From: Amphiscolops sp. MND2022
Lineage: Eukaryota
Length of the DNA stretch: 64,000 nt
Assembly: GCA_964187785.1 (NCBI GenBank)
Contig: OZ076409.1
Span: 73,658,001 to 73,722,000 of the forward strand
Direction of reading: 5' to 3'
This document shows positions 1 through 64,000 of the stretch, piece after piece; position 1 is the stretch's first letter; the number at the start of each line of letters is the position of its first letter. A model generated the notes under the pieces. It saw only the letters and a list, made by a program, of their open reading frames with translations. It was not told the origin of the DNA and did no database searches. The position numbers and the translations under genes are program-made.

Positions 1-643
1 TTGCTAGGCACTTCGTAAGGAGTCCGTAGACAAATTTTCGTACAGATCGGATGAAAATTGACTTAGTAATAAAAAACTTTGATTTGCATTTTTTCGAAAA
101 TTTCTGAAAACCCAGTCTATCTCTGCCGTTTTTTGCCCAGATTTTTTTCCAGGACCTCTCCTAAAGGCCTCCCCTGGCCGGTTTACCTCCCAGAAAAACC
201 ATTTGGCCCTTTTGCCGCAGTTTCAGCGTTCCAGGATTCCCCGGGTAAAAGTAAAATGTCTTAGAATTTTTTCGAAAAATTTTCAAAAATTTTTTTTTCA
301 ACTTCAAGCCTCCCAAAGTCAGGAAACGTCCACACAACTAGTATTGCAAGTGAATGCATGTGGAAAGTGCTCGAATAGACGAGAAAAATGAGCTATTATA
401 AACCTCTGTAGCTCAACCTGACGTTGACTTATGACAATTTTAGTGTGAGCTTGCTATATGGTAAAAAATTTCAAAAATTGAAAATCGAAGCTAAGTCTCA
501 TCCAAAACTCATCGGAATACGTTCAATCCATACCAAAGCGGTTTGTTCCCAGTTGTAGAGTGCAGCAACACCATTCAAGGTCATTTGACCCACTTTAATA
601 GGTTTTGACTTTGTCTTATCCATCCGAAAATTCGAAACAGTTT

Positions 644-684
644 AGTACATTCCATCTCCCCTCCGTGGGAGATGGTAATGTACT
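644..684 (+). other. Subterminal long hairpin ~260-270 bp before the CTAG end (representative copy)
   Basis: AGTACATT-CCATCTCCC-CTCCGT-GGGAGATGG-T-AATGTACT, with variants in families B, D, F and G. Confidence 0.85.
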
Positions 685-948
685 CGCAAAAAGCCAAGTA
701 TAACCGCCCTATTCTACCCGTAGTGGTGCTAGAAGAGCAGTAGCGTGAGCTCCAGGTTTGCAGTAGTCTCTATGTGTTATAATTATATTTTTCATAGCTA
801 AAAATCTTACTAAACGTGATAAAAAAAATTACATCACTCAAAATTTTTTCAAATATTATTATATGTCCCCAATTGACGCATGTCAACTATTTCACTACAA
901 CCACCCTACCACCCGGCCCCTCGTATCTTTGTTCAACCGTACACGTCT

Positions 949-1009
949 AGGTGCCATAATCCATTGATTAGCTCAACACTTCGAGGGCGGGGTAGGGCCC
1001 CCAGCCCGA
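949..1009 (+). other. 5'-terminal double hairpin (representative copy; equivalents follow every junction)
   Basis: Hairpin 1 is TAATC-CATT-GATTA (957-970). Hairpin 2 is TCGAGGGCGGGG-TAGGG-CCCCCAGCCCGA (981-1009). Confidence 0.8.
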
Positions 1010-4000
1010 GTCAAAAGTCGAAGACTAACAACTTAAGGCCCATGGTACCTCGAGACCCCGATTTTCTAAACGGCCCATCAGATTTTGCTCAAATTTTGCA
1101 TACGGCTTCCTATAACAATCCTAAGAACTAATCCCTACTGGCATTTTGCCCGGAAAACGCAAAAAGTGGGTCAAAATCTTAGTTTTTTGGTCAAAAAATG
1201 GCGTTTTTTCGAAAAATTTTTTTTCAAGAGCTCATATCTCGCTTCCAGGTGCTCGGAGCGGGTCGCATGTGGACGTTGATATTGCTGGGCACTTCGTAAG
1301 GAGTCCGTAGACAAATTTTCGTTCAGATCGGATGAAAATTGACTGAGTTATAACATATTTAGAAACGCATTTTTTCGCAAATTTCTGGAATCCCAGTCTA
1401 TCTCTGCCGTTTTTTGCCCAGATTTTTTTCCAGGACCTCTCCTAAAGACCTCCCCTGGCCGGTTTACCTCCCAGAAAAACCATTTGGCCCTAAATACGGA
1501 GTTTCAGCGTTCCAGGATTCCCCGGGTAAAAGATAAATGACTTAGAATTTTTTCAAAAATTTTTCAAAAATTTTTTTTTCAACTTCAGGCCTCCCAAAGT
1601 CAAGAAACGTCCACACAACTAGTATTGCAAGTGAATGCATGTGGAAAGTGCTCGAATAGACGAGAAAAATGAGCTATTATAAAGTTCTGTAGCTTAACCT
1701 GACGTTGACTTATGACAATTTTAGTGTGAGCTTGCTATGTGAGAAAAAATTTCAAAAATTGAAAATCGAAGCTAAGTCTCATCCAAAACTCATCCGAATA
1801 CGCTCAATCCATCCCAGAGCGGTTTAATTCTAGCTATATAGTGCAGCAACACCATTCAAGGTCATTTGACTCATTTCTATAGGTTTTGACTCTGTCTTAT
1901 CCATCCGATAGTTCGAAACAGTTGAGTACATTCCATCTCCCCTCCGTGGGAGATGGTAATGTACTCGCAAAAAGTCAAGGTCCTACCACCGTATTCTACC
2001 CGGAGTTGTGCTAGCAATGCAGTAGCGTGAGCCCCAGGTTGTTTGCAGTAGCCTTTACGTATGTTGTGACTATGTATTACAATTCTAACTCTGTTACTAA
2101 ACATTAAAAAATTGTTTCAATCTCAAATTTTTTTTCAACTTTAGTATGTCACCAATAAACATATATCCATCTTTCCTACTACAACCACCCTACCACCCGG
2201 CCCCTTGTCCACTGTTCAACCGTGCACGTCTAGGTGCCCAAATCCATCGATTTACCTTCACTTTGAGGGCGGGGTAGGGCCCCCGACCGGCTCCTCAGGC
2301 TTTAGACTGACAACGTTAAGCCATTGTGCAAAATGGAAGCGATTTTCTAAACGGCCCATACGATTTGGCTCAAAATTTGCATACGGCTTCCTCTAGCGAT
2401 TCTAAGAACTAATCCCTACTGGCGTTTTGCCCGGAAAAATCAAAAAGTTGGTCAAAATCTTAGTTTTTTGGTCGAAAAATGGCGTTTTTTTGGAAAAAAT
2501 TTTTTTAAGAGCCCATATCTCGCTCCCAGGTGCTCAGAGCGGGTCGCATGTGGACGTTGATATTGCTGGGCACTTCATAAGGAGTCCGTAGACAAATTTT
2601 GGTACAGATCGGATGAAAATTGATAGAGTAATAGCCGCCGATTTGGCGCATTTTTTCGCAAATTTTCGAAAACCTAGTCTATCTCTGCCGTTTTTTGCCC
2701 TGAGCTTGCTATATGGTAAAAAATTTCAAAAATTGAAAATCGAAGCTAAGTCTCATCCAAAACTCATCGGAATACGTTCAATCCATACCAAAGCGGTTTG
2801 TTCCCAGTTGTAGAGTGCAGCAACACCATTCAATGTCATTTGACCCACTTTAATAGGTTTTGACTTTGTCTTATCCATCCGAAAATTCGAAACAGTTAAG
2901 TACATTCCATCTCCCCTCCGTGGGAGATGGTAATGTACTCGCAAAAAGCCAAGTATAACCGCCCTATTCTACCCGTAGTGGTGCTAGAAGAGCAGTAGCG
3001 TGAGCTCCAGGTTTGCAGTAGTCTCTATGTGTTATAATTATATTTTTCATAGCTAAAAATCTTACTAAACGTGATAAAAAAAATTACATCACTCAAAATT
3101 TTTTCAAATATTATTATATGTCCCCAATTGACGCATGTCAACTATTTCACTACAACCACCCTACCACCCGGCCCCTCGTATCTTTGTTCAACCGTACACG
3201 TCTAGGTGCCATAATCCATTGATTAGCTCAACACTTCGAGGGCGGGGTAGGGCCCCCAGCCCGAGTCAAAAGTCGAAGACTAACAACTTAAGGCCCATGG
3301 TACCTCGAGACCCCGATTTTCTAAACGGCCCATCAGATTTTGCTCAAATTTTGCATACGGCTTCCTATAACAATCCTAAGAACTAATCCCTACTGGCATT
3401 TTGCCCGGAAAACGCAAAAAGTGGGTCAAAATCTTAGTTTTTTGGTCAAAAAATGGCGTTTTTTCGAAAAATTTTTTTTCAAGAGCTCATATCTCGCTTC
3501 CAGGTGCTCGGAGCGGGTCGCATGTGGACGTTGATATTGCTGGGCACTTCGTAAGGAGTCCGTAGACAAATTTTCGTTCAGATCGGATGAAAATTGACTG
3601 AGTTATAACATATTTAGAAACGCATTTTTTCGCAAATTTCTGGAATCCCAGTCTATCTCTGCCGTTTTTTGCCCAGATTTTTTTCCAGGACCTCTCCTAA
3701 AGACCTCCCCTGGCCGGTTTACCTCCCAGAAAAACCATTTGGCCCTAAATACGGAGTTTCAGCGTTCCAGGATTCCCCGGGTAAAAGATAAATGACTTAG
3801 AATTTTTTCAAAAATTTTTCAAAAATTTTTTTTTCAACTTCAGGCCTCCCAAAGTCAAGAAACGTCCACACAACTAGTATTGCAAGTGAATGCATGTGGA
3901 AAGTGCTCGAATAGACGAGAAAAATGAGCTATTATAAAGTTCTGTAGCTTAACCTGACGTTGACTTATGACAATTTTAGTGTGAGCTTGCTATGTGAGAA

Positions 4001-8354: not shown

Positions 8355-10930
8355 GTGGCCGGAAATTTTTTTTTTCATCAAAATCTTTGCCATTGGGGGA
8401 GGGGCCCCGGATGGCCAGTAGTACGGGATAGCTTCCTACCAAATCCAGGCGGAAAAAACGTGATTTTGGAAACTAGCCGTCAGAATTTGCTCAAATTTTG
8501 CATACGGCTTCCTATAACAATTCTAAGAACTAATCCCTACTGGCATTTTGCCCAAAAAACGCAAAAAGTTGGTCAAAATCTTAGTAATTTGGTCAAAAAA
8601 TGGCGTTTTTTCGAAAAAAAAATTTTTCAGAGACAATTACTCGTAACTGGTTCACCCAGCGCAAAAACGCCTAGCTGATTTATTGTTGGGCACTTCATGA
8701 GGAGTGCGTATACAAATTTTCGTCCAGATCGGAAAAAAATTGACTAAGTATTAGCCGGAATTCGGACGCATTTTTTCGCAAATTTTTGAAAACCTAGTCT
8801 ATCTCTGCCGTTTTTTGCCCAGATTTTTTTCCAGGTCCTCTCCTAAAGGCCTCCCCTGGCCGGTTTACTTCCCAGAAAAACCATTTGGCCCTAAATACGG
8901 AGTTTCAGCGTTCTAGCATTCCCGGGCGAAAAGATGTGGGACTTAGAAAAAATTCAAAATTTTTCAAAAAATTTTTTTTCGTTTTCCGGCCCCCCAATGA
9001 AGGGGAACGACCCCCCCAACGAGGATTTTTGGTGAATTCACGTGGAAAGGCCTTGTTTTGTGGAGCAAATTGCCGTTTAGAGCGACTTTTCATCTTAACT
9101 TGACGTTGACCTCTGTCGTTTTGAATTTGATATTAGTATGTGTTGAGCATGTGAAAAGTTGATGATTTCAGTTGTTCTCTCGTGTTCAAGCCATTGAGAT
9201 ACAAGCGGTAGTGATCAAAATGTGATTTATCGCAATTTGGTGGTGCTTTTGGTGTATTTTGATTCTTTTAAATAAAAAGTTGGTCTTCATATATTTGGTG
9301 TTATGATTCAAATGAACAAGAAACAGTTGAGTACATTTCATCTCCCCCCTTGTGGGGGAGATGAGGATGTACCCGCTAAATGACACGCACAATGGCCCAC
9401 TTTTATTTTTATGCGACGTTTTCTAGGCTTTTGCGCAAGCCCACCAAAATTTAGACTGGTTTCTTTTTCTTTTACTTCAAAATTTTCCGTACTAACCACC
9501 TTACGCACCACCAGCTCAACGTAACATCTGTAACGTCAACGCCACACACTCTCACTAACGCCCACCGTCCGTGGGCATGCCGAGGCATGCCCTTCGACGA
9601 CGTATGCCAAATAGCGCCACAGGGCGCAAACTTGTCCGCTAGGTGGCCGGAAATTTTTTTTTTCATCAAAATCTTTGCCATTGGGGGAGGGGCCCCGGAT
9701 GGCCAGTAGTACGGGATAGCTTCCTACCAAATCCAGGCGGAAAAAACGTGATTTTGGAAACTAGCCGTCAGAATTTGCTCAAATTTTGCATACGGCTTCC
9801 TATAACAATTCTAAGAACTAATCCCTACTGGCATTTTGCCCAAAAAACGCAAAAAGTTGGTCAAAATCTTAGTAATTTGGTCAAAAAATGGCGTTTTTTC
9901 GAAAAAAAATTTTTTCAGAGACAATTACTCGTAACTGGTTCACCCAGCGCAAAAACGCCTAGCTGATTTATTGTTGGGCACTTCATGAGGAGTGCGTATA
10001 CAAATTTTCGTCCAGATCGGAAAAAAATTGACTAAGTATTAGCCGGAATTCGGACGCATTTTTTCGCAAATTTTTGAAAACCTAGTCTATCTCTGCCGTT
10101 TTTTGCCCAGATTTTTTTCCAGGTCCTCTCCTAAAGGCCTCCCCTGGCCGGTTTACTTCCCAGAAAAACCATTTGGCCCTAAATACGGAGTTTCAGCGTT
10201 CTAGCATTCCCGGGCGAAAAGATGTGGGACTTAGAAAAAATTCAAAATTTTTCAAAAAATTTTTTTTCGTTTTCCGGCCCCCCAATGAAGGGGAACGACC
10301 CCCCCAACGAGGATTTTTGGTGAATTCACGTGGAAAGGCCTTGTTTTGTGGAGCAAATTGCCGTTTAGAGCGACTTTTCATCTTAACTTGACGTTGACCT
10401 CTGTCGTTTTGAATTTGATATTAGTATGTGTTGAGCATGTGAAAAGTTGATGATTTCAGTTGTTCTCTCGTGTTCAAGCCATTGAGATACAAGCGGTAGT
10501 GATCAAAATGTGATTTATCGCAATTTGGTGGTGCTTTTGGTGTATTTTGATTCTTTTAAATAAAAAGTTGGTCTTCATATATTTGGTGTTATGATTCAAA
10601 TGAACAAGAAACAGTTGAGTACATTTCATCTCCCCCCTTGTGGGGGAGATGAGGATGTACCCGCTAAATGACACGCACAATGGCCCACTTTTATTTTTAT
10701 GCGACGTTTTCTAGGCTTTTGCGCAAGCCCACCAAAATTTAGACTGGTTTCTTTTTCTTTTACTTCAAAATTTTCCGTACTAACCACCTTACGCACCACC
10801 AGCTCAACGTAACATCTGTAACGTCAACGCCACACACTCTCACTAACGCCCACCGTCCGTGGGCATGCCGAGGCATGCCCTTCGACGACGTATGCCAAAT
10901 AGCGCCACAGGGCGCAAACTTGTCCGCTAG
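8355..10930 (+). mobile_element. Two tandem family-B units (1288 bp each); third copy at 17450-18737
   Basis: Start GTGGCCGGAAATTTT, end CTTGTCCGCTAG. The right half is largely unrelated to family A and carries GGGCATGCCGAGGCATGCCC. Confidence 0.85.
9573..9592. promoter_or_regulatory. Palindrome GGGCATGCCGAGGCATGCCC (hairpin and/or p53-family-like response element) near the 3' end of families B-F
   Basis: A 9-bp inverted repeat that also matches RRRCWWGYYY x2 at 19 of 20 positions. Copies at 17378-17397, 52799-52818, 59327-59346 and 63170-63189, and in the other B and C units. Confidence 0.5.
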
Positions 10931-16063: not shown

Positions 16064-17449
16064 GTGGTTGGGGCGGTCCCCAGAACGCACAAGGAGGCGC
16101 GGGGAGGGTCCTGCGCCGACGTAAAATAATTTCATATAATACTAGTATCCTACATGGGTGTTTTAGAAGCGATTTTGGAATCTAACCGTAGGATTTGGAT
16201 AATTTTTTGCATGCGGCCATAACTTGAAATTCTAAGAACTTTTTCCTTCTGCCATTTTCCCCGCAAATTGTTTTTTGTTGACTTATGGCCGAAAAACCGG
16301 AAATAACGTGCTTTTTAGACGTTATATCCGAAGTGTCGTCATAACTTTTTTCCAGGGCATGCTAGCGTTCTCGTTCACTTTTACCCTTTGTTGCAGAATC
16401 TCAAAATACGCCCGGTGTAAAATTTTGGTTGCAATCGGATCACCCCATGCCGAGATAGAGGGGTTCACCCCCTCAGTTTAACCCCCAAAAAAGGCGAAAA
16501 AGCCAATTTTGAGCATGAAGCCGAGAATTTAGCGTACCCGCACCCTCCTGATGTTTTGTTGTACGTATTATGGTAAACCTGATGACATGTGTGGTTTTCA
16601 CCCCCAACCCCCCTGGGACCGGAAATGACACTTTTTTTGTGTTTTTTGACAAAAATTTGCCTTTTTCATTAGAAGGCAGTCGTTTTTGGGACTCCTAGCA
16701 GGATATCGAAATTGAAATACAACCTGATCACAACGCAGTGACAACATGTTGGCCATTTGGAGGTACCATCATGACCGGAAGGGTCAAACTACCCTTTTTG
16801 TGACCGCTTTTTGACCTTGTGCACCAAATTGCCAACAACTTGATGCCTAATGACGCATTCAAATCTGTACAAAGATAGAACGTTAGACAACCGAAGTCCC
16901 GCAAGATCTTTAGCACATACCGGAAGTTACCCCCCATGACCGGAAGTTACCCAATGTGACCGGAAATGGTCCAAAAATTAATGTAAAGTTGAATTTTTCA
17001 CTATTTCAAGACCATTTCATTGAACATTTTCAATCCCAAAACTAGCGTACTGGCTTGTTTTGCTGAATTTATGGAAATTGATGAGCTCTATCACCCCCGA
17101 TAGCCTTCGAAGTTGACCTTGCGTCAACTTTGGAGGCTATCGATACTGAAAATGAACAACAAAGTACATTGTTGCTCTCGGTTTTTTCCCGTTGTTTTTC
17201 CTCAAACATTCTTGAGACATATACATGGCCGTTAGTTGAAATCAAAATTTAGCCCATGTTATAGCTGGAGCAGCGAAGCGTTACACAGACTAGTGTGGTT
17301 TTGAAATTACATTATTTAAATTAACCACTGACCGTCTTAGTCAACTCCACACATTCATACCAACGCCCACCGTCTGTGGGCATGCCGAGGCATGCCCTTC
17401 GACGACGTATGACGAATCCACTCCAACGACACCCGCAGTCCTCAGCTAG
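16064..17449 (+). mobile_element. Family-C unit (1386 bp)
   Basis: Start GTGGTTGGGGCGGTCCCC, end CCTCAGCTAG. The interior is mostly unrelated to family A and is rich in ACCGGAAGT/ACCGGAAAT. Confidence 0.85.
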
Positions 17450-37482: not shown

Positions 37483-37672
37483 ACATCGTAAAAGCTAAAA
37501 AGTAGGGGAAGCACATAGTTCTACTCTGATAGTGAACGTGTGTTGTTCTCCACATTAGGTTTTAAAACAACATGTAATTTTGTGTAAAAATGTAAAAGTA
37601 GGCACTGTAGGATATCGCACAAAGTTCTACTACACAGGGTGGACACCGTGCGATACTCTGTTTGTTCACTGT

Positions 37673-37815
37673 AGGTTAGTTTGCTGGAATCGACGGAGAG
37701 CGTGGTTCCAGGTAGGTTTATATTAGGTTAGTTAGCTGGAATCGACGATGAGCGTGGTTCCAGGTAGGTTTAAATTAGGTTGGTTTGCTGGAATCGACGA
37801 TGAGCGTGGTTCCGG
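37673..37815 (+). repeat. 52-bp tandem repeat (x3), each copy holding a CTGGAATCGACG-N5-CGTGGTTCC(A/G)G hairpin
   Basis: Hairpins at 37684-37711, 37736-37763 and 37788-37815. Confidence 0.85.
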
Positions 37816-38499: not shown

Positions 38500-38980
38500 G
38501 CGTCCAGATGAAGAAGAAAGAAGATTCGGAAGATGAGAATAATTAATATGTATAATAGTAATAATTATAGTAGTTGCGTCCAGATGAAGAAGAAAGAAGA
38601 TTCGGAAGATGAGAGTAATTGATATTTATAATAGTAATATTTATAGTCGGTGCGTCCAGATGAAGAAGAAAGAAGATTCGGAAGTAGAGAATAAATAATA
38701 TTTATAATAGTAATATTTATAGTAGGTGCGTCCAGATGAAGAAGAAAGAAGATTCGGAAGTAGAGAATAAATAATATTTATAATAGTAATATTTATAGTA
38801 GCTGCGTCCAGATGAAGAAGAAAGAAGATTCGGAAGATGAGAGTAATTGATATTTATAATAGTAATATTTATAGTAGGTGCGTCCAGATGAAGAAGAAAG
38901 AAGATTCGGAAGTAGAGAATAAATAATATTTATAATAGTAATATTTATAGTAGGTGCGTCCAGATGAAGAAGAAAGAAGA
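38500..38980 (+). repeat. 76-bp minisatellite (6 full + 1 partial copy)
   Basis: GCGTCCAGATGAAGAAGAAAGAAGATTCGGAAG followed by an AT-rich part; copies start at 38500, 38576, 38652, 38728, 38804, 38880 and 38956. Confidence 0.95.
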
Positions 38981-39172
38981 AAAGAAGACGGTCCAGAACA
39001 CGGAAAGAAGATTTGGGAAAAGATTATAATAACTCTGACATGTTTTTGTACTTCACTTTTTTGAAAGGTTGTAGGTTCAGAATAGGCTGTAGTGATTAGG
39101 TTGTATAAATTTCATTGTTCGGCATGATATGCAAATCACTGGGAGCCCTAACCGATAGTCCTCGTTTTGTAG

Positions 39173-39832
39173 ATGACAATGAACAGCCCAAGCGTCGTAA
39201 TTATTGGAGCAAGTAACCTGGTGTCGAAGAAGAAAGAGCCCCTTGAAGCCTGTAACTGTTTGACTCCCGAATGCACGAGAAAAGACGAACACCTTACGAA
39301 CCTGCCAGAGAATTCAACATTTCAAATTTTTGCTCAACCAGGGGCTAAAATAAACCATCCGAATGAAGTCAAGTCTGCCGAAACCTTGTTCAAAAAAGCT
39401 CTAGCACTCAGGCCCAAGACCATCGTTTTTTACATGGATATTATAATGAATTCCTTGACTAGTCCTCCCTGGTTGCCAAATTTACCTGTTTTGAGTCCAC
39501 AAGAAGTTCTACGAAAATTGTTTGTTTTTGAAAGAAAAGCTAACGCCCAAGATATTAAGTTTGTTGTTGTTTTATGTAGGCGAAGGAAAGAGGATAAGCT
39601 AAAACTGCAACCTGGAACGTCACGTCAGCCTGGAGATGCACCCTTACCATTTGACTCCGATTCAACTCTTGACAATGAAATGAATACCTTACTGAAAGAA
39701 AATTTTTTTTACTATAGTGATTTAAAACTCTCCAATGCAGCCTTCAAGATCAACGATTCAGCTCATCAGACTCAACTTTCACTCAATTTGTCCCTTGGGA
39801 AAATTATTCGTTTTTTTAATAAGGACACCTAA
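39173..39832 (+). CDS. SGNH/GDSL hydrolase-like protein (219 aa)
   Basis: Block I-like VVIIGASNL, block II-like AQPGAKI, block III-like IVFYMDIIMNSL and block V-like DSAH (DxxH) in the expected order. The ATG directly follows an acceptor-like CTAAC...TTTTGTAG. Confidence 0.6.
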   Translation: MTMNSPSVVIIGASNLVSKKKEPLEACNCLTPECTRKDEHLTNLPENSTFQIFAQPGAKINHPNEVKSAETLFKKALALRPKTIVFYMDIIMNSLTSPPWLPNLPVLSPQEVLRKLFVFERKANAQDIKFVVVLCRRRKEDKLKLQPGTSRQPGDAPLPFDSDSTLDNEMNTLLKENFFYYSDLKLSNAAFKINDSAHQTQLSLNLSLGKIIRFFNKDT

Positions 39833-40054
39833 TTCACTTGCTCTGTCAGTTTAAGCGCTTTAGCGTCTTAAACTGACCCCTTTTCCTCTCTCTTTTCTTC
39901 TTTTCCGCCTTTTTCTTTTTAATAGGGTTCTGGCGACGTGGAAGAGAAGGAGAGGAAACCTGGCCTGCTTGCAGGATTGCCAGCTGTCTTCGAGGAAATT
40001 GTTGTGCCTGTCTACGTCCTTGCCGCAACTTGGACCCGAAGCAGCTGTCTCACA

Positions 40055-40345
40055 AATCAAAAACAAAGAAATTCCAAAAAAAATCATAAAACTTCAAAAA
40101 AACCCCAAAAAAAAACAAAAAAACCCATAAAAACCAAAAAAAAAACTTAAAACAAAAATATAACCAAAACCCCAAAAAAACAAAAACTCAATTCAGAGAA
40201 ATGCACAAACAAACGAAAAACCAGAAAACCTTAAGACAAAACTCGGAAACATATCTTACCAAAAGTGAAATCTCAAAAATCCTAAAACCTTGAAAAGTAG
40301 AGCAAAACTTTCCAAAAAATCCTTACAACTTAAAAACTATAAAAC
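40055..40345 (+). repeat. A/C-rich low-complexity tract between ORF2 and ORF3
   Basis: Runs such as AAAAAAACCCCAAAAAAAAACAAAAAAACCC with almost no G. Confidence 0.8.
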
Positions 40346-40917
40346 TTTCTTGTTTTCCAACTTTTTTCTTTTGCACTCTGTCTAAAGAGAATATTAACAC
40401 TTTTAGTCTTTATGTAACGATTCCAATTTTATTTGTGAAGTAAATACTGTCAATTAAAATTTTTTCGTTAAAAAGTCTTTTGACATAAAAAAAACAATTT
40501 TCGAGTATTTTTTCCTTGGAATCCTACTTTCTAAAATTCACATGTTTGCTTAAGCTTCTTCATACCCTGCATTTTCTTTACTGTTTGAGGATTCCACTAT
40601 AAATTTTTTTTGCCCATTCCGAACTCAGCAGATACATGTCCTAATTTTCATTGAAGTTTGCCTTTGGTTCAATGCCTTTTGTTTTTTAAGCTCCTTCAAA
40701 ACTCTCAAATACATGCGAAAAAATGTTTTTAGTAGAAAAAAAATGAAAAAAATCCTAACGAGATGTCCCCTGGAGAAGATTCCAGCACTGTTTGTGTATC
40801 AACAGTTCGGTAATGGGTCTACAATGAAATTTAGGTTAACCTCCATTTTGTATTCGTATGGTCTTTTACTCTTGGAATGTGAAAACTGAAATTTTTGGTT
40901 GCTTTTCCAGATTCAAA

Positions 40918-41991
40918 ATGCCCGGTTTCTTGAAGGCAAATCTAAGCGAAGCCCAGGCTCAAAGTCTCCTGTGTAGGTTTACTCAAAGTTCAGTCGACGA
41001 GATAACCAGCGGCGAACCCTCGTCTCGACTGTATAGACTGTCTGCCGTGCTGTTATATGTAACACAGCCGACAAGAAAGATTTCATTCAATAAACAAACC
41101 AAGAATTTTGGGTCTCGCAAAATGGAGGTGGACAAATACCACCGGTTTGTGGTATTTGGTATCCCAGGTACAACAACTATAGTGGCGATGTTTTCGCCCA
41201 ATAGCGAAGAGTCGCGTCGACTCTTCAGGTACAACATCGGACCGGGTAGCCATGTTCAAATATTGAAACCGACCTTGGAAGGTCAACTGTCCAGAGGTGG
41301 CAGTTGCCTCATTTCAACTAAGGAGCCGTTGGTACCCTCCATCGAGCCTAACGATGACATTACTTTACCGCCCTACGACGTGGAAGGAAGTTGTATCGAA
41401 TTCCGGTACTTCAGTTTTGTCACGAAAAATTTATTGGTCGACAGTGCGGTGATTGCGGAGAGTGTGTGCCCAGGTAAGCTTTGCGACGGGCAAACTTACC
41501 ACGAAAATTGCCCCTGTCTGGAAACATCACAGACAAAAATTTGGAACTTATTGTTCGACTTGAAATGCCCAGAAATGAGCAATAATCACTCCGAGATAAT
41601 AAGCTTTTATTCAAACGAGACAACGGGGTACTTCGTGACGCCAGCGACACGAAAATTGAAGGGCGATTCCGACCGAATAGACAGGTTCGATCTGGATAAT
41701 TCTGTACAACTGTTGGTGCAATCTGTCAATGAAACGTGTGGATTCAGAGTCTCCGGCTGGTTCAAACCAGCGATTGATGAAGAGGGGACAACGCTTGAAC
41801 ATAAAAATTTTCACGTCTGCTCATTGAAACCTGAAAGTCCTTTAACGTCTGAACAGGAAGGACTGAAATACAGCACCGAAACGACGTCAACTGGTGCTTC
41901 AGCTGTTACAGCCGAAACAGGCTCAGATCCAACTCCGAGTTCAAATGCAACTGCACCTCCGGACTTGACTGCGGCCCCGGATACACAATGA
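40918..41991 (+). CDS. Uncharacterised ~357-aa protein, possibly a tandem OB-fold ssDNA-binding protein with a Cys cluster and a low-complexity S/T/P/A tail
   Basis: Long open frame. The ORF track starts at 40858, but the ATG at 40918 follows the acceptor TTTTCCAG (40910) and is the likelier start. The pattern is beta-rich (LYRLSAVLLYV, RFVVFG, IVAMFS, IGPGSHVQILKP) and includes CPGKLCDGQTYHENCPC. The fold is inferred. Confidence 0.6.
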   Translation: MPGFLKANLSEAQAQSLLCRFTQSSVDEITSGEPSSRLYRLSAVLLYVTQPTRKISFNKQTKNFGSRKMEVDKYHRFVVFGIPGTTTIVAMFSPNSEESRRLFRYNIGPGSHVQILKPTLEGQLSRGGSCLISTKEPLVPSIEPNDDITLPPYDVEGSCIEFRYFSFVTKNLLVDSAVIAESVCPGKLCDGQTYHENCPCLETSQTKIWNLLFDLKCPEMSNNHSEIISFYSNETTGYFVTPATRKLKGDSDRIDRFDLDNSVQLLVQSVNETCGFRVSGWFKPAIDEEGTTLEHKNFHVCSLKPESPLTSEQEGLKYSTETTSTGASAVTAETGSDPTPSSNATAPPDLTAAPDTQ

Positions 41992-42220
41992 TCGCCTGGA
42001 TACACTACAATACTTTAGCGCTGTTGCGGTTGAGTGGCTTGTCGCCCTTTTGAGCCGTCAGTCACTCTCCGCAATTGAACTTAAAAATTTGATTTTGTTT
42101 ATGGTAAAATAATTACCATTTTGTTTGAAATAAAAGCAAAGAAGTAAGCCTTTTTTGGGAACAACTAAAACTAATTGATTGTTTTAATCCCACAGGTTTT
42201 TTTCACTCAATTGTCTTCAG

Positions 42221-42328
42221 GTACTTTTTTTCAACGGGCATCTCTATCCCTAAGGTAATTAAGTAGATTTAAATTAAGTACTTTTTTTCAACGGGCATCT
42301 ATATTCTTAAGGTAATTAAGTAGATTCT
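42221..42328 (+). repeat. ~58-bp direct duplication near the right end of the long element
   Basis: GTACTTTTTTT(T)CAACGGGCATCT.TAT.C.TAAGGTAATTAAGTAGATT x2. Confidence 0.85.
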
Positions 42329-45300
42329 AAAATTTGAAGACATGTACTCTGATTACATCAGCCTCATTAGGTGGAATCGACGATAAGCGTGGTTCCACTT
42401 TTCTTTTTTTGAAATCAAGTATAATAATGTAACGACAACCCTTCCGCATTCTCTAACATCATTAACCACTCATTAACCTTTCAACCGACACCCGACTGAC
42501 GACTCTTCTCCAATCACGTAAGTAACTACTTTCATATTTTTAACACTCTCCTGCCTACTGGAATCTTCGTTTTGCCGTCCACGTCTAGGTGCCCAAATCC
42601 ATCGATTTACCTTCACTTTGAGGGCGGGGTAGGGCCCCCGACCGGCTCCTCAGGCTTTAGACTGGCAACTTTAAGCCATTGTGCAAAATGAAAGCGATTT
42701 TCTAAACGGCCCATACGATTTGGCTGAAATTTTGCATACGGCTTCCTCTAGCAATTCTAAGAACTAATCCCTACTGGCGTTTTGCCCGGAAAAATCAAAA
42801 AGTTGGTCAAAATCACTATTTTAGGTGCCGAAAATGGCGTTTTTTCGAAAAATTTTTTTTCAAGAGCCCATATCTCGCTTCCAGGTGCTCGTAGCGGGTC
42901 GCATGTGGACGTTGATATTGCTAGGCACTTCGTAAGGAGTCCGTATACAAATTTTCGTTCCGATCGGATAAAAATTGACTGAGTAATAGCCGCAAATCGG
43001 ACGAATTTTTCCGGAAATTTTGGTGCAACTAGTCTATCTCTGCCGTTTTTTGCCCAGATTTTTTTCCAGGACCTCTCCTAAAGACCTCCCCTGGCCGGTT
43101 TAGCCCCCAAAAAAACCATTTGGCCCTTTTGCCGCAGTTTCAGCGTTCCAGGATTCCCCGGGTAAAAGTAAAATGTCTTAGAATTTTTTCGAAAAATTTT
43201 CAAAAATTTTTTTTTTCAACTTCAGGCCTCCCAAAGTCATAGAACTTCCACACAACTAGTATTGCAAGTGAATGCATGTGGAAAGTGCTTGAATAGACGA
43301 GAAAAATGAGCTATTATAAACCTCTGTAGCTTAACCTGACGTTGACTTAAGACAATTTTAGTGTGAGCTTCCTATGTGAGAAAAAATTTCAAAAATTGAA
43401 AATCGAAGCTAAGCCTCATCCAAAACTCATCGGAATACGTTCAATCCATCCCAAAGCGGTTTGTTCCCAGTTGTAGAGTGCAGCAACACCATTCAAGGTC
43501 ATTTGGCCCACTTTAATAGGTTTTGACTTTGTCTTATCCATCCGAAAATTCGAAACAGTTAAGTACATTCCATCTCCCCTCCGTGGGAGATGGTAATGTA
43601 CTCGCAAAAAGCCAAGTACTACCGCCCTATTCTACCCGTAGTGGTGCTAGAAATGCAGTAGCGTGAGCTCCAGGTTGTTTGCAGTAGCCTTTACGTATGT
43701 TGTGATTATGTATTACAATTCTAACTCTGTTACTAAACATTAAAAAATTGTTTCAATCCCAAATTTTTTTCAACCTTAGTATGTCACCAATAAAGATATA
43801 TCCATCTTTCCTACTACAACCACCCTACCACCCGGCCCCTCGTATCTTTGTTCAACCGTACACGTCTAGGTGCCCCGCTTTGACCAGCAACCCAACTCTT
43901 TGAGGGCGGGGTAGGGCCCCCAGCCCGAACATAAGGCTTTAGACTTTCAACTTAAGGCGGATGCTACAGTCTGATATCGATCTCGAGAACTAGCCCCGCG
44001 ATTTGGCTGAAATTTTGCATACGGCTTCCTATAACAATTCTAAGAACTAATCCCTACTGGCATTTTGCTGTGAAAACGCAGAATGTTGGTCAAAATCTTA
44101 GTTTTAGGGTCAAAAAATGGCGTTTTTTCGGAAAATTTTTTTTCAAGAGCCGATATCTCGCCCCACAGGCCCCGAATCAAAAAGTGTACAATTGTTCGTT
44201 TGTTAGGCACTTCATGAACTGTCCGTAAACAAATTTTCGTACAGATCGGATAAAAATTGACTGAGTAATAGTCGCAAATCCGACGAATTTTTTCGAAATT
44301 TTTGGTGCACCTAGTCTATCTCTGCCGTTTTTTGCCCAGATTTTTTTCCAGGACCTCTCCTAAAGGCCTCCCCTGGCCGGTTTACCTCCCAGAAAAACCA
44401 TTTGGCCCTTTTGCCGCAGTTTCAGCGTTCCAGGATTCCCCGGGTAAAAGTAAAATGTCTTAGAATTTTTTCGAAAAATTTTCAAAATTTTTTTTTTCAA
44501 CTTCAGGCCTCCCAAAGTCAAGAAACGTCCACACAACTAGTATTGCAAGTGAATGCATGTGGAAAGTGCTCGAATAGACGAGAAAAATGAGCTATTATAA
44601 ACCTCTGTAGCTCAACCTGACGTTGACTTATGACAATTTTAGTGTGAGCTTGCTATATGGTAAAAAATTTCAAAAATTGAAAATCGAAGCTAAGTCTCAT
44701 CCAAAACTCATCGGAATACGTTCAATCCATCCCAAAGCGGTGTAATTCCAGCTATGTAGTGCAGCAACGCCATTCAAGGTCTTTTGACCCATTTATATAA
44801 GTTTTGACACCGTCTTATCCATCCGAAAGTTCGAAACAGTTAAGTACATTCCATCTCCCCTCCGTGGGAGATGGTAATGTACTCGCAAAAAGCCAAGTAT
44901 CACCGTCCTATTCTACCCGTAGTTGTGCTATAAATGCAGTAGCGGGAGCGCCAGGCTGTCTACAGTAGCCTTACGGGTGTTGTGACTATGTATTACAAAT
45001 CTAACTATGTTACTGAACGTGAAAAAATTGTTTCACTCCAAAATTTTTTTCAACTATTCTATGTCATCAATAAAGATATATCCATCCATTTACTACTACC
45101 TACCCCATCACCCGCCCCCTCCACTATCTGTTCAACCGTACACGTCTAGGTGCCCAAATCCATCGATTTACCTTCACTTTGAGGGCGGGGTAGGGCCCCC
45201 GACCGGCTCCTCAGGCTTTAGACTGGCAACTTTAAGCCATTGTGCAAAATGAAAGCGATTTTCTAAACGGCCCATACGATTTGGCTGAAATTTTGCATAC

Positions 45301-51572: not shown

Positions 51573-52861
51573 GTGCCGGGATTTCTATTCGATAAAGTAT
51601 GTGGCGCGCCTTGGGTAGGGTCCCTTGCGCGCTTTTGGGTATGGTGTTCACCAGCTAGGAAATAGGGGTCGATTTTTCGGGATCTCCTAAACTAGCCACA
51701 CGATTTGGCTGAAATTTGGCACACGTACTCCCCTCGGCACGGTGAAGATGATTTCCTACTGACGTTTTTCCCGCAAAATTTTTTTTGTTGTCCAAAATAA
51801 CGGTTTTTGGGGTAAAATTTTGAATTTTTTTTAAATTTTATCTTATATCTCGCCACGGGTTTACGCTAGCGCTTCAAAACCCTGCTAAAGAAAGCTTGCA
51901 AACTGTCTCAGGAATGCGGTGTGAAATTTTTAGCTCAATCGGACTTAAACTCAGGGAGATATAGCGTTTTTCCGGAGCGGGGGGGTTTCATTTTTCTAAC
52001 GGTCCAGCTTATCTTTGCCATTTTTTCGAAAATGTACTCGCCTAAAGACCTCCCCTGGCCGGTTTTATTCCCAGCAAAACCATTTGGCCCTAAATACGGA
52101 GTTTCAGCGTTCCAGCATTCCCGGGCGAAAAGTTGTGGGACTTAGAAAATTTCAAAAATTTTCAAAATTTTTTTTTTTCGGTTTTCCGCCCTCCCCCCCG
52201 AGGGGAAAAGACCCCCCAACCAGTAATTTGAGTGAATTCATGTGGAAAGGCCATGTTTAGAGGAGAAAAATCCCGTTTAAATCGTCTTTTTATCTTTATT
52301 CAACGTTGACTTATGACGTTTTGAAGGTGATGTTTGGAGGTGTGAAGCACGTGAAAAGTAAACGTTATGAGTATTTATCTGATCTGAAAGCCATTGAGAT
52401 GCAACCTGTTTTGCTCAAAACGTAATTCATATCAGTTTGGTAGTCAATCAACACCCTTTGTTGTCATTTGACATCTTTTTTTGTTGATATAAGAAAAAAT
52501 TTTGTGTATTTATTCAATTTTTTCCCATCAAATAACTTGAAACAGTTGAGTACATTCCATCCCCCCTTCACGGGGGAGATGAGAATGTACTCGCAAAAAG
52601 CCCCGAACTACGGCCCTTACCTTCCTGAGCTACGCAGTATAAAGATTGCATATTGGTTCCGACATTTTGATAGAGTTATATCTTGGTAATCTGTCTGGGT
52701 ATGCAGAAAAACCAGCACGTGCTTTTTTATACCAAGTTGCTCACAACGACATTTATTTTATATCAACGCCCCCATATTTATCAACGCCCCCCGTCCGTGG
52801 GCATGCCGAGGCATGCCCTTCGACGACGTATACCAAGATATGTTCGAGCGCGTTAGCCTAG
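51573..52861 (+). mobile_element. Family-D unit (1289 bp)
   Basis: Start GTGCCGGGATTTC, end CGTTAGCCTAG. Keeps the central CCTAAAGACCTCCCCTGGCCGGTTT block, the GTACATTCCATC hairpin and the GGGCATGCC palindrome. Confidence 0.8.
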
Positions 52862-57997: not shown

Positions 57998-59403
57998 GTG
58001 GTCGGGTATTTTTTTTTACTCGTAGATGGCGTTTGCGAGGCTTTGGGGAGGGCCCCGTGCCGAGCCTGTACCGAAATTTACCACATACCAGAAGTGTCCG
58101 ATTTAATCGAGATCTCAAAAACTAACCGTTAGAATTCTCTGAAATTTTGCATGTGGCCCCTAATCAATGAGTAATGAAAAAGTGTAGGAGTGACGGTTGC
58201 TGAAAAACTTGTCTTTGTTGCACTTTTTGCGCAATTTTTGTCGCATTGTTGCGTTTTTTATGTCATTTTCAACTTTTCAAGCAAAAAACTCATAGATGCT
58301 TTGTTCCTAGCGTATCAAGTGTGGAGCACGAAAAGTTGCAGCATCTTTGATTACGTATGCTGTGAAAATTTGGTTGCCCTCGGCTCACCCCCCACTGAGA
58401 TAGAGGGGTGCTTCCGGTCTTTTTTGACCCCTAAGTTTGGGAAATTGCTAATTTTCGTAATAAAGCCGTAGATTTAGCGTGTGCACACCCTGCTGAAGAT
58501 TTGTTAGGCATTATGAGATAAATCCGATGACATGCGTTCAGTTCACCCCCATCACCCCCTGGACCGGAAATAAACTTTTTTGTGTCCTTTCAGACCGGAA
58601 GTCTCCATTTTCAACGGTAAGGAGTCCTTGTACGGGCAACTAGCAGGGCATCAAAATTGAAGTACAATGTGGGGTGAGCCTAGTTACCACGTGTTGACCA
58701 GTCATGGGTACCGCCTTGACCGGAAATGGGGTCAAAACCCCCCTATTGGTCGATTTTTTATCAGTTTGACTAGTGTTTGGTCCACATACAAGTCGGGTAA
58801 GTCAATTGAACCAGTGTGAGCATAAACTGCACGTTCACTGCGTAGCCGTAAATGACACTGACAGATACCGGAAGTAACCCCCTGTGACCGGAAGTTGTCA
58901 CTTTTGACCGGAAATGGTCCAAAAAACTGCGTGAAAGCAGTTTTTCATTAGTTTTAGAAGTCATTTTTTTACTTTTTCTACGCTGATTGCTTTTTTCTAC
59001 TCACAAAGGTAACATCGTGCCTCGTTTGGCTAAAGTTCTGAAAAATGATCACCTTTATCACCCCCGATAGCCTTTCAAGTTGACCTTGGGTCAATCTTGA
59101 AGGCTATCTGTTCTGAAAACGAAAAATAGGAAAATTTTGTTTTTTCTTATTTCCCTTGATAATTTCCCTTAATTAATTTTGTTAAGCAAACCCTTTTGTT
59201 CAACTGAATGATCTGAAAAATGTTCAGAGGTGTCACCCTGGCAAGGATTATTTGACGTTGAAGTAAACTGAGAATGAGGGTAGTATTAGACAACATCACA
59301 CACACTTACCAACGCCGACCGTCTGTGGGCATGCCGAGGCATGCCCTTCGACGACGTATGCCAAATCTGCGCCACCCGTACTATTGAGTGCGGTAGCCGC
59401 TAG
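57998..59403 (+). mobile_element. Family-E unit (1406 bp), a distant relative of family C
   Basis: Shares TCACCCCCCACYGAGATAGA, the ACCGGAAGT triplet, the GATAGCCTT...AGGCTATC hairpin and the terminal palindrome with family C. Ends GCCGCTAG. Confidence 0.8.
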
Positions 59404-60687
59404 GTGGTTAAGGGCGTCCCCTTACCTCTGTCGCCGGCGCGGGGAGGGTCCTGTGCCGGCGCCCCTTGTAGAAAATATACGTAAAGGATGGAAAAATATA
59501 AATGCGATTTTTTAAACTAACCGTTGGATTCGGCTAATTTTTTGCATGCAGCCTCCTTGGACCAATATAAGAACAAACTCCTACTGGCGTTTTTCTGGGA
59601 AAATTTTTTTTGTTGACTTATAGACAATTTTAGGGTCAAAAAATGGCCTTTTTTTCAATTTTTTGCATTTTTTCGCTTTTTTTCGCAAAAAAGTGTAACT
59701 TCGTCCACACAACTAGTATTGCAAGTGGCTGCATGCGAAAAGCCAATGAACAGACGAGAAAAATGAGCTATAGAACGCTTGTCTACGACAACCTGACGTT
59801 GACTTATGGTAATTTGAGTAATCGCATTTTTTTGTTTTTGCCTCGAATTTGGTACTTAGTGACCCATATCTCACTACACAGTTGTCTGAGCAAGATCATT
59901 TATTTTAACGTTTTTGTTGTCCATTAATAGTGCAACAACTGATAAGAGGTAAAGTTTTCTGTGAGACAACGTTGAAAAAAGATATTGGTGATTTTACACC
60001 CAGAAAAACGGTGTATTGCGAACTTCAAAATTTTTTTTCAACTTCAGGCCTTCCAAAGTTGAGAAACTTCCACACAACTAGTATTGCAAGTGAATGCATG
60101 TAGAAAGTGCTTGAATAGACGAGAAAAATGAGCTATTATAAAGCTCTGTAGCTTAACCTGACGTTGACTTATGATAATTTTAGTTTCAGCTTGCTATGTG
60201 TGAAAAAATTCAAAAATTGAAAATGGAAGCTAAGTCTCATCCAAAACTCATCGGAATACGTTCAATCCAAGCCAGAGCGGTTTGTTCCCAGTTGTAGAGT
60301 GCAGCAACACCATTCAAGATTATTTGACCCATTTTAATAGGTTTTTGACTCTGTCTTATCCATCCGAAATTTCGAAACAGTTGAGTACATTCCATCTCCC
60401 CTCCGTGGGAGATGGCAATGTACTCGCAAAAAGCCAAGTACTATTCCCCTTTTTATACCTGCACTGGCCCTAGAAATACAGTAGCGTGAGCTCCAGGTGG
60501 TTTGCAGTAGTCTTAACGTGTGTTGTAACTTTGCTACAAATCTAACTATGTTACTAAACATGAAAAAATTGTTTCAATCCAAATTTTTTTCCAATCATTA
60601 TATGTCATCAATATACATATATCCATCCATTTACTACTACCTACCCCATCACCCGCCCCTCGCATCCCTTCATGGTGCAGCCTCTGG
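59404..60687 (+). mobile_element. Rearranged unit G (1284 bp) ending in CTGG
   Basis: C-like 5' hairpin and an A-like right half. The CCACACAACTAGTATTGCAAGTG...ACCTGACGTTGACTTATG block occurs twice (~59705-59808 and ~60069-60173). Confidence 0.75.
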
Positions 60688-61967
60688 GTGCCAAAACCCA
60701 ATGGTTTGCCAAACACTTCGAGGGCGGGGTAGGGCCCCCAGCCCGAGTCAAAAGTCGAAGACAAACAACTTAAGGCGATTGCTGGGATCTCCTATCGATT
60801 TTCTAAACGAGCCATACGATTTGGCTGAAATTTTGCATACGGCTTCCTATAACAATCCTAAGAACTATTTCCTTCTGGCATTTTGCCCGGAAAAATCAAA
60901 AAGTGGGTCAAAATCTTAGTTTTTTGGTCAAAAAATGGCGTTTTTTTGGAAAAAAAATTTTTAAGAGCCAATATCTCGCTCCACAGGCCCCGGATCAAAA
61001 AGTGTACAATTGTTCGCGTGCTAGGCACTTCATGAACTGTCCGTAGACAAATTTTCGTCCAGATCGGATAAAAATTGATTGAGTAATAGAAAACTTTGAA
61101 AGTGATTTTGACGACTTTTTTCGAAAACCTAGTCTATCTCTGCCGTTTTTTGCCCAGATTTTTTTCCAGGACCTCTCCTAAAGGCCTCCCCTGGCCGGTT
61201 TACCTCCCAGAAAAACCATTTGGCCCTTTTGCCGCAGTTTCAGCGTTCCAGGATTCCCCGGGTAAAAGATAAATGACTTAGAATTTTTTCAAAAATTTTT
61301 CAAAAATTTTTTTTCAACTTCAGGCCTCCCAAAGTCAAGAAACGTCCACACAACTAGTATTGCAAGTGAATGCATGTGGAAAGTGCTCGAATAGACGAGA
61401 AAAAAGAGCTATTATAAACCTCTGTAGCTCAACCTGACGTTGACTTATGACAATTTTAGTGTGAGCTTGCTATGTGAGAAAAAATTTCAAAAATTGAAAA
61501 TCGAGCTAAGTCTCATCCAAAACTCATCGGATTACGTTCAATCCACCCTAAAGCGGTTTAATTCCAGTTACTAAGTGCAGCAACACCATTCAAGGTCATT
61601 TAACCCATATTTATAATTTTTGACACCGTCTTATCCATTTGAAAGTTCGAAACAGTTGAGTACATTCCATCTCCCCTACGTGGGAGATGGTAATGTACTC
61701 GCAAAAAGCCAAGGTCCTACCGCCCTATTCTATCCGGCGTTGCATCAGAAATGCAGTAGCATGAGCTCCAGGTTGTTTGCAGTAGCCTTTACGTATGTTT
61801 TGACTATGTATTACAATTCTAACTCTGTTACTAAACATTAAAAAATTGTTTCAATCTCAATTTTTTTTTCAACTTTAGTATGTCACCAATAAACATATAT
61901 CTATCTTTCCTACTACAACCACCCTACCACCCGGCCCCTTGTCCACTGTTCAACCGTGCACGTCTAG

Positions 61968-63238
61968 GTGGCCGCGTCTTTTAGATGGACTTTTAGCCCT
62001 GAGGCGCGGGTAGGGTCCTGCGCCGAGCTGGTGAAAATATACTACGTCCAAATCGCCCGTTCCGGAAACGATCTCAAAACTGGCCCGTACGATTTTCCTG
62101 AAACTTTGCATGTGGCCCCCAATTGGCGAGCAATGAAAAAGTGTAGGAGGTCGTTTATCCCAAATTCCACTGTGAGAGGAGATATATGAAAAAAACGGAC
62201 CCCAAAATGACGAAAATTTCACTTTTTGACCAAAAATGTGACATTATCTCCTCAGACAAGGCTCGGAGCAAAATTTGTCAGAACCCAAACCTGCAGCAGA
62301 CTGTTAGAGCAGTGCACACAGTAAGTTTGAAGGAAATCGGATAATCACATGTTGAGAAATTGACGATTTTCCGACAAATTTTTTTGCATTTGCAGTCTAT
62401 CTCTGCCGTTTTTTGCCCAAAATTTTTTCGAGACCCTCTCCTAAAGACCTCCCCTGGCCGGTTTACCTCCCAAAAGAACCATTTGGCCCTAAATACGAAG
62501 TTTCAGCGTTCTAGCATTCCCCAGTGAAAAGTTATGGGACTTAGAACTTTTTCAAAAATTTTCAAAATTTTTCTAAAAAAGTTCAGGCCGCCCAAAGTGA
62601 AGAAACTTCCACACAACTAGTATTGCAAGTGAATGCATGTGGAAAGCCCTGCACTTGACGAGAAAAATGCCGTTTAGAACGTCTTTTTATCTTATTTTGA
62701 TGTTGACTTATGATCTTTTGAGTAGCGTATAACACGTGATCACAGTAGTGAAAATCCTAATTTTCAAAAATTTTCAAACAATAACGCATGAAAAGAACCT
62801 GGAAAAGGTTCCGATGGGTCAGTTGGGATGTCTGAAGCATGTGTACATTTCCGTAGTGAATAGCGGATGTATTTGAGACTTATTAGAAATTGTGATAAAT
62901 TTTATACAAGTCTTTGTTTCTCTTAGAATCTTATGCAGTTGAGTACATTCCATCTCCCTCTCAGGGGAGATGTGAATGTACGTTTGCCAAATGCCTTGTA
63001 AAGCTCACAATTTTGATGGATTCAAATAACTAAACAAGTGTGATTTGCGTTTGCCGAACCACTGCGACAAAATATCCTAAATCTATAGCGAGATTGTATG
63101 GTTTTTGTCTTTAGTGTTTCGTCTTGTGTAGCCGACTTCCACATCCAAATATCAACGCCCGCCGTCCGTAGGCATGCCGAGGCATGCCTTTCGACGACGT
63201 ATGCCAAATACCCAATGCCACGCTGTCATTATCGCTAG
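61968..63238 (+). mobile_element. Family-F unit (1271 bp)
   Basis: Start GTGGCCGCGTCT, end ATCGCTAG. Central conserved block present; the terminal palindrome variant is AGGCATGCCGAGGCATGCCT. Confidence 0.8.
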
Positions 63239-64000
63239 GTGCCAAAACCCAATGGTTTGCCAAACACTTCGAGGGCGGGGTAGGGCCCCCAGCCCGAGTC
63301 AAAAGTCGAAGACTAACAACTTAAGGCCAATACTAAAACCTCCTATCGATCTTGGAAACGGCCCATACGATTTGGCTCAAAATTTGCATACGGCTTCCTC
63401 TAGCGATTCTAAGAACTAATCCCTACTGCCATTTTGCCCGGAAAATTTTTTTTGTTGACTTATACACTATTTTAGGTGCCGAAAATGGCGTTTTTTTGGA
63501 AAATTTTTTTTTAACAGCCAATATCTCGTTCCACAGGCCCCGGATCAAAAAGTGTACAATTGTTCGCACGTTAGGCACTTCATGAACTGTCCGTAGACAA
63601 ATTTTCGTCCAGATCGAATAAAAATTGACTGAGTAATAGCCGGAATTCTGACGCATTTTGTCGAATTTTTTTGAAACCTCAGTCTATCTCTGCCGTTTTT
63701 TGCCCAGATTTTTTTCCAGGACCTCTCCTAAAGGCCTCCCCTGGCCGGTTTACCTCCCAGAAAAACCATTTGGCCCTTTTGCCGCAGTTTCAGCGTTCCA
63801 GGATTTCTTGAGTAAAAGTAAAATGACTTAGAATTTTTTCGAAAAATTTTCAAAATTTTTTTTTCAACTTCAGGCCTCCCAAAGTCAAGAAACTTCCACA
63901 CAACTAGTATTGCAAGTGAATGCATGTGGAAAGTGCTTGAATAGACGAGAAAATTGAGCTACTATACGACCCTGTAGCTTCACTTGACGTTGACTTATGA

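Follow-up and report, generated by a model that had tools for sequence, protein, structure and literature searches.

What fills tens of kilobases of a eukaryotic chromosome with short mobile units of divergent families, all in one orientation and all joined at the same few bases? This question is raised by a 64,000-nt stretch of the 1.07-Gb genome of Amphiscolops sp. MND2022 (contig OZ076409.1, here C1, 73.658-73.722 Mb; hereafter the window), which is a head-to-tail array of rolling-circle, Helitron-like units with a single long coding element among them. Our results make it likely that this array has built up from insertions of a divergent Helitron-like clade that prefers its own end-to-end joint as a target.

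A mixed array on one strand

The motif CTAGGTG occurs 38 times on the forward strand of the window and three times on the reverse strand; dinucleotide content predicts 1.6. Two variant junctions, CTAG|GAG at 4485 and CTGG|GTG at 60684 (the bar marks the joint), bring the same-strand junctions to 40; CTGGGTG also occurs at 34860, but within a long open reading frame (ORF), and is not a junction there. These junctions delimit 39 complete units, 38 of them 972-1,406 nt long and one the coding element of 13,477 nt, which together with two partial units at the edges fill the window and leave no host DNA. Our recount agrees with a preliminary description made from the letters alone, which had reported the 40 junctions (38 CTAG|GTG and the two variants), the lack of host DNA, and a 13.5-kb coding element occupying one slot with the boundaries of the short units. 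The 38 short units are non-coding (the largest ORF in the window's ORF list that falls within them has at most 144 aa) and belong to seven families, with 29 units in family A, three in B, two in C and one each in D, E, F and G. Units of family A are 77-99% alike, and different families are 38-69% alike. The interleaving of divergent families given in that description, A-A-B-B-A-A-A-A-C-B-C-A, was recovered at units 5-16. An Rfam scan of positions 7000-20200 (about 10 units, 13.2 kb) gave four weak matches, all far below the gathering score, and the units in this part contain no known RNA gene.

The array extends well beyond the window. It is unbroken and one-stranded through C1:73.44-73.48, 73.49-73.54 and 73.56-73.72 Mb, and no reverse-strand junction was found in about 230 kb of array. 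All 35 Rep matches within C1:70.5-76.5 Mb lie on the forward strand (hand count). When this region of about 6 Mb was sampled in 2.4-kb pieces, a junction was present in five of six inner samples and in none of four outer ones, so that continuity is sampled rather than proven. Mixed arrays are also found on C2, C6, C8, C10 and at other sites of C1, some scattered loci hold small arrays of just 2-4 units, and solo copies exist in host DNA. We pooled 174 units, which form 25 clusters at 70% identity, 33 at 80% and 56 at 90% (a few clusters being composite or autonomous).

Target site and growth of the arrays

All 174 units start with GTGC, GTGG or GAGC, a result partly fixed by the search pattern, and they end in CTAG (166), CTGG (7) or CTCG (1). 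A 3' hairpin is strong in D-type ends but lies 50-75 nt from the end, and it is weak in A-type ends. Eleven elements or mini-arrays flanked by host DNA on both sides allowed a comparison of empty sites, which read CTTG|AT (7), CTAG|AT (2) or CTCG|AT (2); all 11 had been selected on AT and five of them also on CTTG, and the six picked only on AT gave two of each. Where an A-type end is followed by a base other than G, AT came next in 20 of 30 cases, some of these being tandem duplicates or chance. In addition, a D-type unit is interrupted at CTTG|GT by a nested insertion at two loci, L215 with two stacked units and L107 with a single one, and behind the insert the unit continues with nothing lost or duplicated. 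The unit was not resumed within 1.5 kb in three further internal CTTG cases. The empty host sites and the split D-type units together define the target as CT(T/A/C)G|RT. Since the elements' own joint, CTAG|GT, fits this motif, each insertion is bordered on either side by a joint that resembles the target. CTTG|ATA is the nick site of phiX174 and pC194. No telomeric repeats were found at the flanks.

Two side observations concern insertion sites. Three units (L083, L086 and L089) are shortened at an internal CTTG and fused to a new start, possibly by premature termination at a cryptic site. At C3:70.4 Mb (L003/L004), a 5'-truncated autonomous copy lies between 1.5-kb duplicates of retrotransposon-like host sequence, the second of which shows the empty site CTAG|ATG.

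Genome-wide, units are almost always found in arrays, a distribution that the preliminary description had proposed to map. Starts recognized by their 5' motif follow CTAG 4,180 times, a count that lumps host and element DNA upstream, and CTTG 41 times (controls: 0); 30 of these CTTG starts were examined, and the upstream DNA was host in 19 and element in 11. CTAG precedes 165 of 176 A-type starts, the remaining 11 being host-flanked (3), placed after variant ends of other units (5) or part of one rearranged cluster (3). Likewise, 177 A-type 3' ends are joined to GTG[GC] versus 33 followed by a base other than G (control: 5), host-G followers falling outside this count.

The neighbors of recent copies indicate how units arrive. 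Among the 174 units, 49 pairs are at least 98% identical and both neighbors are known for 39: both sides differ in 36 of these pairs, one neighbor is in common in three, and both are in common in none. Exact identity beyond the junction extends over at most 12 nt on 75 of 87 flanks and over 13-100 nt on nine. In small arrays, young units occupy first and last positions alike. The neighbor and flank comparisons indicate that units mostly move singly, and together with the nested CTTG|GT insertions they support the one-by-one insertion at a regenerated junction that had been proposed from the window. Alternatively, mixed multimers might be built off the chromosome or by read-through (3'-end skipping or circle switching), with arrays growing by insertion of whole blocks. 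Bypass of the 3' end is established for Helraiser according to the available part of the source (PMC5148889), and one near-identical pair has 789 nt of the next unit in common. We nevertheless consider this explanation unlikely, as no near-identical pair has both neighbors in common and nearly all have neither, and as units are also found solo and, in one case, nested singly.

The preference for junctions over other copies of the target motif points to a longer recognition signal. A conserved 5' hairpin (Table 1) is present in 29 of the 33 cluster representatives. Across 26 arm pairs, its outer arms pair better with their own partner (-8.5 kcal/mol) than with swapped ones (-5.9 kcal/mol), a difference reached in 0 of 2,000 permutations, and these arms show compensatory changes. 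The host genome holds about 1.3 million CTWG|RT sites (a rough extrapolation from 49.6 kb), and none of the 99 internal CTNG|RT sites in the 174 units carries an insertion, while junctions are used; this check brought up seven odd units, one of which stays unexplained. Given these numbers, the hexamer alone is insufficient for the junction bias. By analogy, we infer that Rep may recognize a hairpin-bearing, origin-like chromosomal structure as its target; TrwC and the Rep of adeno-associated virus (AAV) integrate at origin-like sites, as the accessible portion of PMC5714925 describes. Another proposal is that Rep reads CTNG|RT only, that a chromatin region or the vicinity of the donor attracts insertions, and that selection purges dispersed copies. 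The target is indeed short and used in host DNA, several pairs that are 99.9-100% identical lie less than 10 kb apart, and arrays differ in family make-up. However, selection on host genes cannot account for the 99 unused internal sites, and the arrays of 2-4 units lie at scattered loci, which leaves this proposal quite improbable. As an observation in its own right, the array domains at C1:3.49-3.63, C1:37.9-38.1 and C1:70.8-73.2 Mb differ in their dominant families (2-kb, 1.07-kb or 1.28-kb), which suggests family-biased targeting or local bursts.

Several observations weigh against single insertions into the elements' own joint. Beyond the lumped upstream DNA in the CTAG count, our strict patterns undercount old dispersed copies, and a clear host-flanked start was found within 7 kb for just 6 of 20 host-flanked D-type 3' ends. 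More than 100 nt beyond the junction are common on three of the 87 flanks, and the stacked units of L215, 99.4% identical, are also what a concatemer would give. All our observations come from assembled sequence, and no circle, nicking or presence/absence polymorphism is among them. One element of a remote branch of the clade, found at two metagenome sites (L202 and L203; flanks CTGG| and CTCG|, end CTGG|T), occurs as solo insertions, and arrays may not be a clade-wide trait. Finally, same-family neighbors are enriched (62 of 160, versus 31.7 +/- 3.7 expected from within-block shuffles) and units of family A combine end types in mosaic fashion; together with the chimeric unit 2, this implies that recombination, local copying or family-biased targeting also shapes the order, and the sequences indicate that recombination does add to it locally. 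The same three features would suit a satellite that goes back to a single ancestral Helitron unit and owes its diversity and mixed order to unequal crossing-over and gene conversion, but this is very improbable, since the divergent families, 1.07-14.7 kb long, switch exactly at the 7-base joint, identical units lie on different chromosomes among unrelated neighbors, intact autonomous elements of 29-34% protein identity fill slots, host-flanked copies have a common target motif, and the nested insertions at CTTG|GT contradict a satellite as sole cause; a unit order fully explained by unequal crossing-over of one ancestral satellite is what the preliminary description had named as its own refutation.

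Under self-targeted insertion, the favored explanation, the two-tyrosine HUH Rep would nick the top strand just behind CTNG, a single unit would be peeled off by the Pif1 helicase, and the OB-fold protein encoded by the same element would coat the released strand. This strand, probably by way of a circle closed at CTAG|GTG, would then be joined to the DNA at a different CTNG|RT site. An array would begin with a rare insertion into host DNA, and later copies of any family would go preferentially into the existing junctions, most likely because Rep reads more than six bases, such as the hairpin 30-60 nt downstream, so that a chromosomal origin would serve as the target. Several autonomous lineages would supply the same arrays, and recombination would add local duplications and chimeras.

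Such a self-targeting habit would keep the elements away from host genes. It would also let a mobile element grow into a megabase tandem array without any host repeat or recombination, as the element makes its own target, and IS91-like sequence specificity in a eukaryotic rolling-circle element bears on the target choice and origin of Helitrons. The elements are intact and recently active, which makes the question testable with one protein and short oligonucleotides. If Rep does prefer the hairpin junction, it would be a candidate single-strand, site-specific integrase, with which cargoes of about 1 to 15 kb could be stacked one after another in a single landing site.

The autonomous elements and their clade

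The coding element of the window encodes a Rep-helicase protein (RepHel) with matches to PIF1, Helitron_like_N and GIY-YIG, in agreement with the coding capacity first ascribed to it. We identified the HUH motif (H1130/H1132), the tyrosines Tyr1301 and Tyr1305, a Pif1-like Walker A motif (1784-1790) and, at the C-terminus, the GIY-YIG domain (2262-2333). The HUH histidines, both tyrosines and Walker A are invariant across 19 homologues, and a comparison with a 78%-identical copy gave differences of 0.19, 0.13 and 0.53 at first, second and third codon positions. Near-identical copies of the ORF are located at C10:13.51, C1:73.87 and C1:74.86 Mb. Four further autonomous copies (on C3, C4, C9 and C12) have flanks that show truncated elements in host DNA.

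Two smaller ORFs follow. The product of ORF3 has no Pfam match, and its structural model (predicted local distance difference test, pLDDT, 75.6) resembles the OB folds of MCM10, Teb1 and RPA70 (Z 9.3, 9.0 and 8.2; root-mean-square deviation 3-4 over 104-115 aligned residues), with a Foldseek E of about 1e-4 and low TM scores. ORF3 is kept across the clade, remote relatives included. The modeled protein is probably a single-stranded DNA-binding helper, Z scores of 8-9 being moderate and a common fold proving no function. In some remote relatives (L177, L182, L185, L195 and L196) the OB-fold gene and the transposase are on opposite strands. ORF2 had no Pfam match and no blastp match in the long ORFs of seven divergent elements; language-model (Atlas) feature matches to SGNH/GDSL hydrolases reached 0.92-0.94 with low counts of shared features.

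The element also contains tandem repeats: a 76-nt repeat in 6.3 copies (38500-38980), two 52-nt repeats and one 57-nt repeat (positions 29866-29969, 37672-37813 and 42221-42331). The 76-nt array recurs in a copy at C1:73.64 Mb. Upstream of the ORF, a 5' module of about 770 nt (29112-29960, all units) is common to many families, in autonomous and non-autonomous elements alike. The module may carry the promoter, and it may account for the frequent family length of 1.26-1.40 kb.

The preliminary description held that one autonomous element served all families in trans, and this part did not hold. Genome-wide, we found 136 Rep-region matches, about 65 of them in open frames of at least 2,100 codons (hand count), in identity bands of 100, 83-90, 42-45, 35-40 and 31-34%. 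All seven divergent autonomous loci that we fetched show an array junction, and both ends lie within the fetched stretch for three. Their whole-protein identity is 29-34%, one ORF being in pieces. The first ~770 nt of the unit families match different masters, and these sequence matches suggest that several autonomous lineages feed the same arrays.

A Rep-region search gave 687 clusters at 50% identity. A helicase-region search returned 39 clade members at E <=1e-32, followed by just two HLE2-type proteins (HLE, Helitron-like element) at about 1e-4 to 1e-3. Pfam scans of 19 members found PIF1 in all 19 and Helitron_like_N in 14. The clade profile matched Helraiser over the helicase alone (E 3e-13), a bacterial Pif1 more strongly (1e-21), and 121 HLE2-type proteins at helicase motifs only. 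Cross-profile medians were 26-31 bits versus about 1,800-2,000 within groups, the within-group scores being high by construction and the HLE2-type set representing one fungal-like neighborhood. An EFQxRG motif considered as a clade marker was rejected, as only 1 of the 121 HLE2-type proteins has it.

The remote branch comprises 42 metagenome loci, most on contigs too short to show ends. Five of them (L173, L196, L200, L202 and L203) keep the 5' hairpin downstream of a CT(A/C/G)G|TT start, and in L173 a new start comes directly after the element's downstream end. Some clade transposases (P0016, P0030, P0032 and others) contain an OTU-like protease domain. Two clade proteins labeled 'bacterium' in NCBI (P0260 and P0262) are probably eukaryotic DNA in metagenome bins.

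Taking these results further, we tentatively propose, at somewhat less than even chances, an undescribed superfamily-level clade defined by Rep-Pif1-GIY-YIG and the OB-fold gene, whose Rep would serve as an integrase specific to its own origin. Elements of about 30% protein identity would have one self-regenerating attachment site in common and build a megabase safe harbor, possibly a chromosome domain used by the host (a centromere or a small-RNA source).

Table 1. Features of the window (positions in nt; RepHel, Rep-helicase protein)
Feature	Position	Strand	Remarks
Head-to-tail rolling-circle array, many families, single strand	1..64000	+	Belongs to region ~C1:70.5-76.5 Mb
A-family unit with internal deletion and chimeric halves (unit 2)	2234..3205	+	Recombination product
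Two B-family units	8355..10930	+	Third B at 17450-18737; 99.9-100% alike
C-family unit	16064..17449	+	Second C at 18738-20126
Example junction CTAG|GTGC, 1 of 40	29108..29115	+	Fits host target CT(T/A/C)G|RT
Autonomous element, 13,477 nt, 5'-GTGC...CGTCTAG-3'	29112..42588	+	CTAG|GTG boundaries as for short units
Conserved 5' hairpin, core GGG-[T/G]AGGG-NCC	29143..29166	+	30-60 nt past the start of nearly every unit
RepHel-GIY-YIG ORF, 2,378 aa stop to stop	30346..37482	+	ATG at 30355; matches PIF1, Helitron_like_N, GIY-YIG
ORF2, 219 aa	39173..39832	+	Possible SGNH/GDSL-like fold, a lead only
ORF3, 357 aa, predicted OB-fold protein with four-cysteine motif	40918..41991	+	11-homologue alignment
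A-family unit	42589..43869	+	100.000% identity over 1,281 nt with host-flanked copy at C4:77.35 Mb
D-family unit	51573..52861	+	3' end with GGCATGCC-GA-GGCATGCC hairpin, common to most non-A families
E-family unit	57998..59403	+	
F-family unit	59404..60687	+	Terminal CTGG
G-family unit	61968..63238	+	

Relation to known systems

The feature works like IS91-type rolling-circle transposition and is Helitron-like in the broad sense, with a HUH Rep and its tyrosines, a Pif1-like helicase, orientation-specific insertion and no target duplication. IS91 is likewise a two-tyrosine HUH rolling-circle element that makes no duplication and whose target resembles its own terminus. The available part of PMC13181058 gives its target as CTTG (also CTCG), a terminus cleaved at CTCG, subterminal palindromes and end-joined circles, and describes no megabase mixed arrays. 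A CTTG/GTTC target like the terminus cleavage site is also found here. However, IS91 is bacterial, about 2 kb long and without a helicase fusion, whereas the present element encodes a 2,378-aa Rep-helicase-GIY-YIG protein in a eukaryotic genome. The enzymes TrwC (acting on oriT) and AAV Rep (acting on AAVS1) also integrate DNA into targets like their own origin, but in the text available (PMC5714925) they are plasmid and virus systems and not self-stacking transposon arrays.

Canonical Helitrons (HLE1, Helraiser) have in common with our elements the fusion of HUH Rep and Pif1-like helicase, a 3' CTAG (CTRR with a subterminal hairpin), the lack of target duplication and the presence of non-autonomous derivatives. 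As the preliminary description had noted, however, Helitrons normally start with TC and insert at A|T; our units start with GTG, insert at CT(T/A/C)G|RT (CT(T/A/C)G|AT in the empty sites) and carry a conserved hairpin near the 5' end. Tandem Helitron arrays are reported in plants and bats in the sections available of PMC11417382 and PMC5876387, and have been explained as rolling-circle concatemers (Xiong 2016, as cited in the accessible text of PMC11934779 and PMC5148889); the arrays described here, in contrast, mix dozens of families. HLE2 elements (Helentron, FoHeli) also encode a RepHel and in some cases have a hairpin near the 5' end, and GIY-YIG was captured in one moss HLE2 family, according to the same part of PMC11417382. 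Unlike HLE2, none of the 19 clade members has a DUF6570 or AP-endonuclease match, and the target is not T|T. No short asymmetric terminal inverted repeats, an HLE2 trait, were noticed in the printed termini, where no dedicated search was made.

The Helitrons of Paramecium form a third HLE clade outside HLE1 and HLE2, as our elements may do, and likewise insert in a fixed orientation at a sequence-specific target that matches their own 3' end. In the available text of PMC13085455, these elements have CCAA ends and are inserted in C4A2 repeats, and no mixed head-to-tail arrays are described. They differ from our elements in that their target is a host telomeric repeat and not their own junction. 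Our full-text literature searches, with most subscription papers and Repbase outside their coverage, turned up no account of our clade or of Helitron arrays that are mixed and self-targeted. Members of the clade may be among the unclassified HLEs that HELIANO reports for 19 genomes (PMC11417382, available part).

The HeT-A, TART and TAHRE elements of Drosophila form head-to-tail, one-orientation arrays of several families, autonomous and non-autonomous, by reverse transcription at chromosome ends. Integrons collect gene cassettes at attI/attC sites with a tyrosine recombinase. The arrays described here differ from both in being interstitial, HUH-based and non-coding. The label 'integron-like' given in the preliminary description stands loosely, for stacking; it does not extend to the enzyme, which is of the HUH type instead of a tyrosine recombinase, to a single entry site or to cargo genes, the window's short units having no ORF above 144 aa. 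Mosaics of transposons made by recombination are described in the portion available of a preprint (bioRxiv 10.64898/2026.09.17.752431).

Five public sequencing runs had a match, with small shares (0.05-0.13) that are no evidence of habitat. Short contigs from four of the public runs, which are distant data sets, were 80-99% alike over units and ORF and gave no informative skip or circle joint. Viral contigs gave 97 pattern matches and no relatives. At C1:23.96-23.98 Mb an array switches strand, with forward junctions at 23.962-23.977 Mb facing reverse junctions from 23.979 Mb. At C6:53.13-53.15 Mb, three rearranged elements have starts after GTAG, each 48 nt past a CTAG end.

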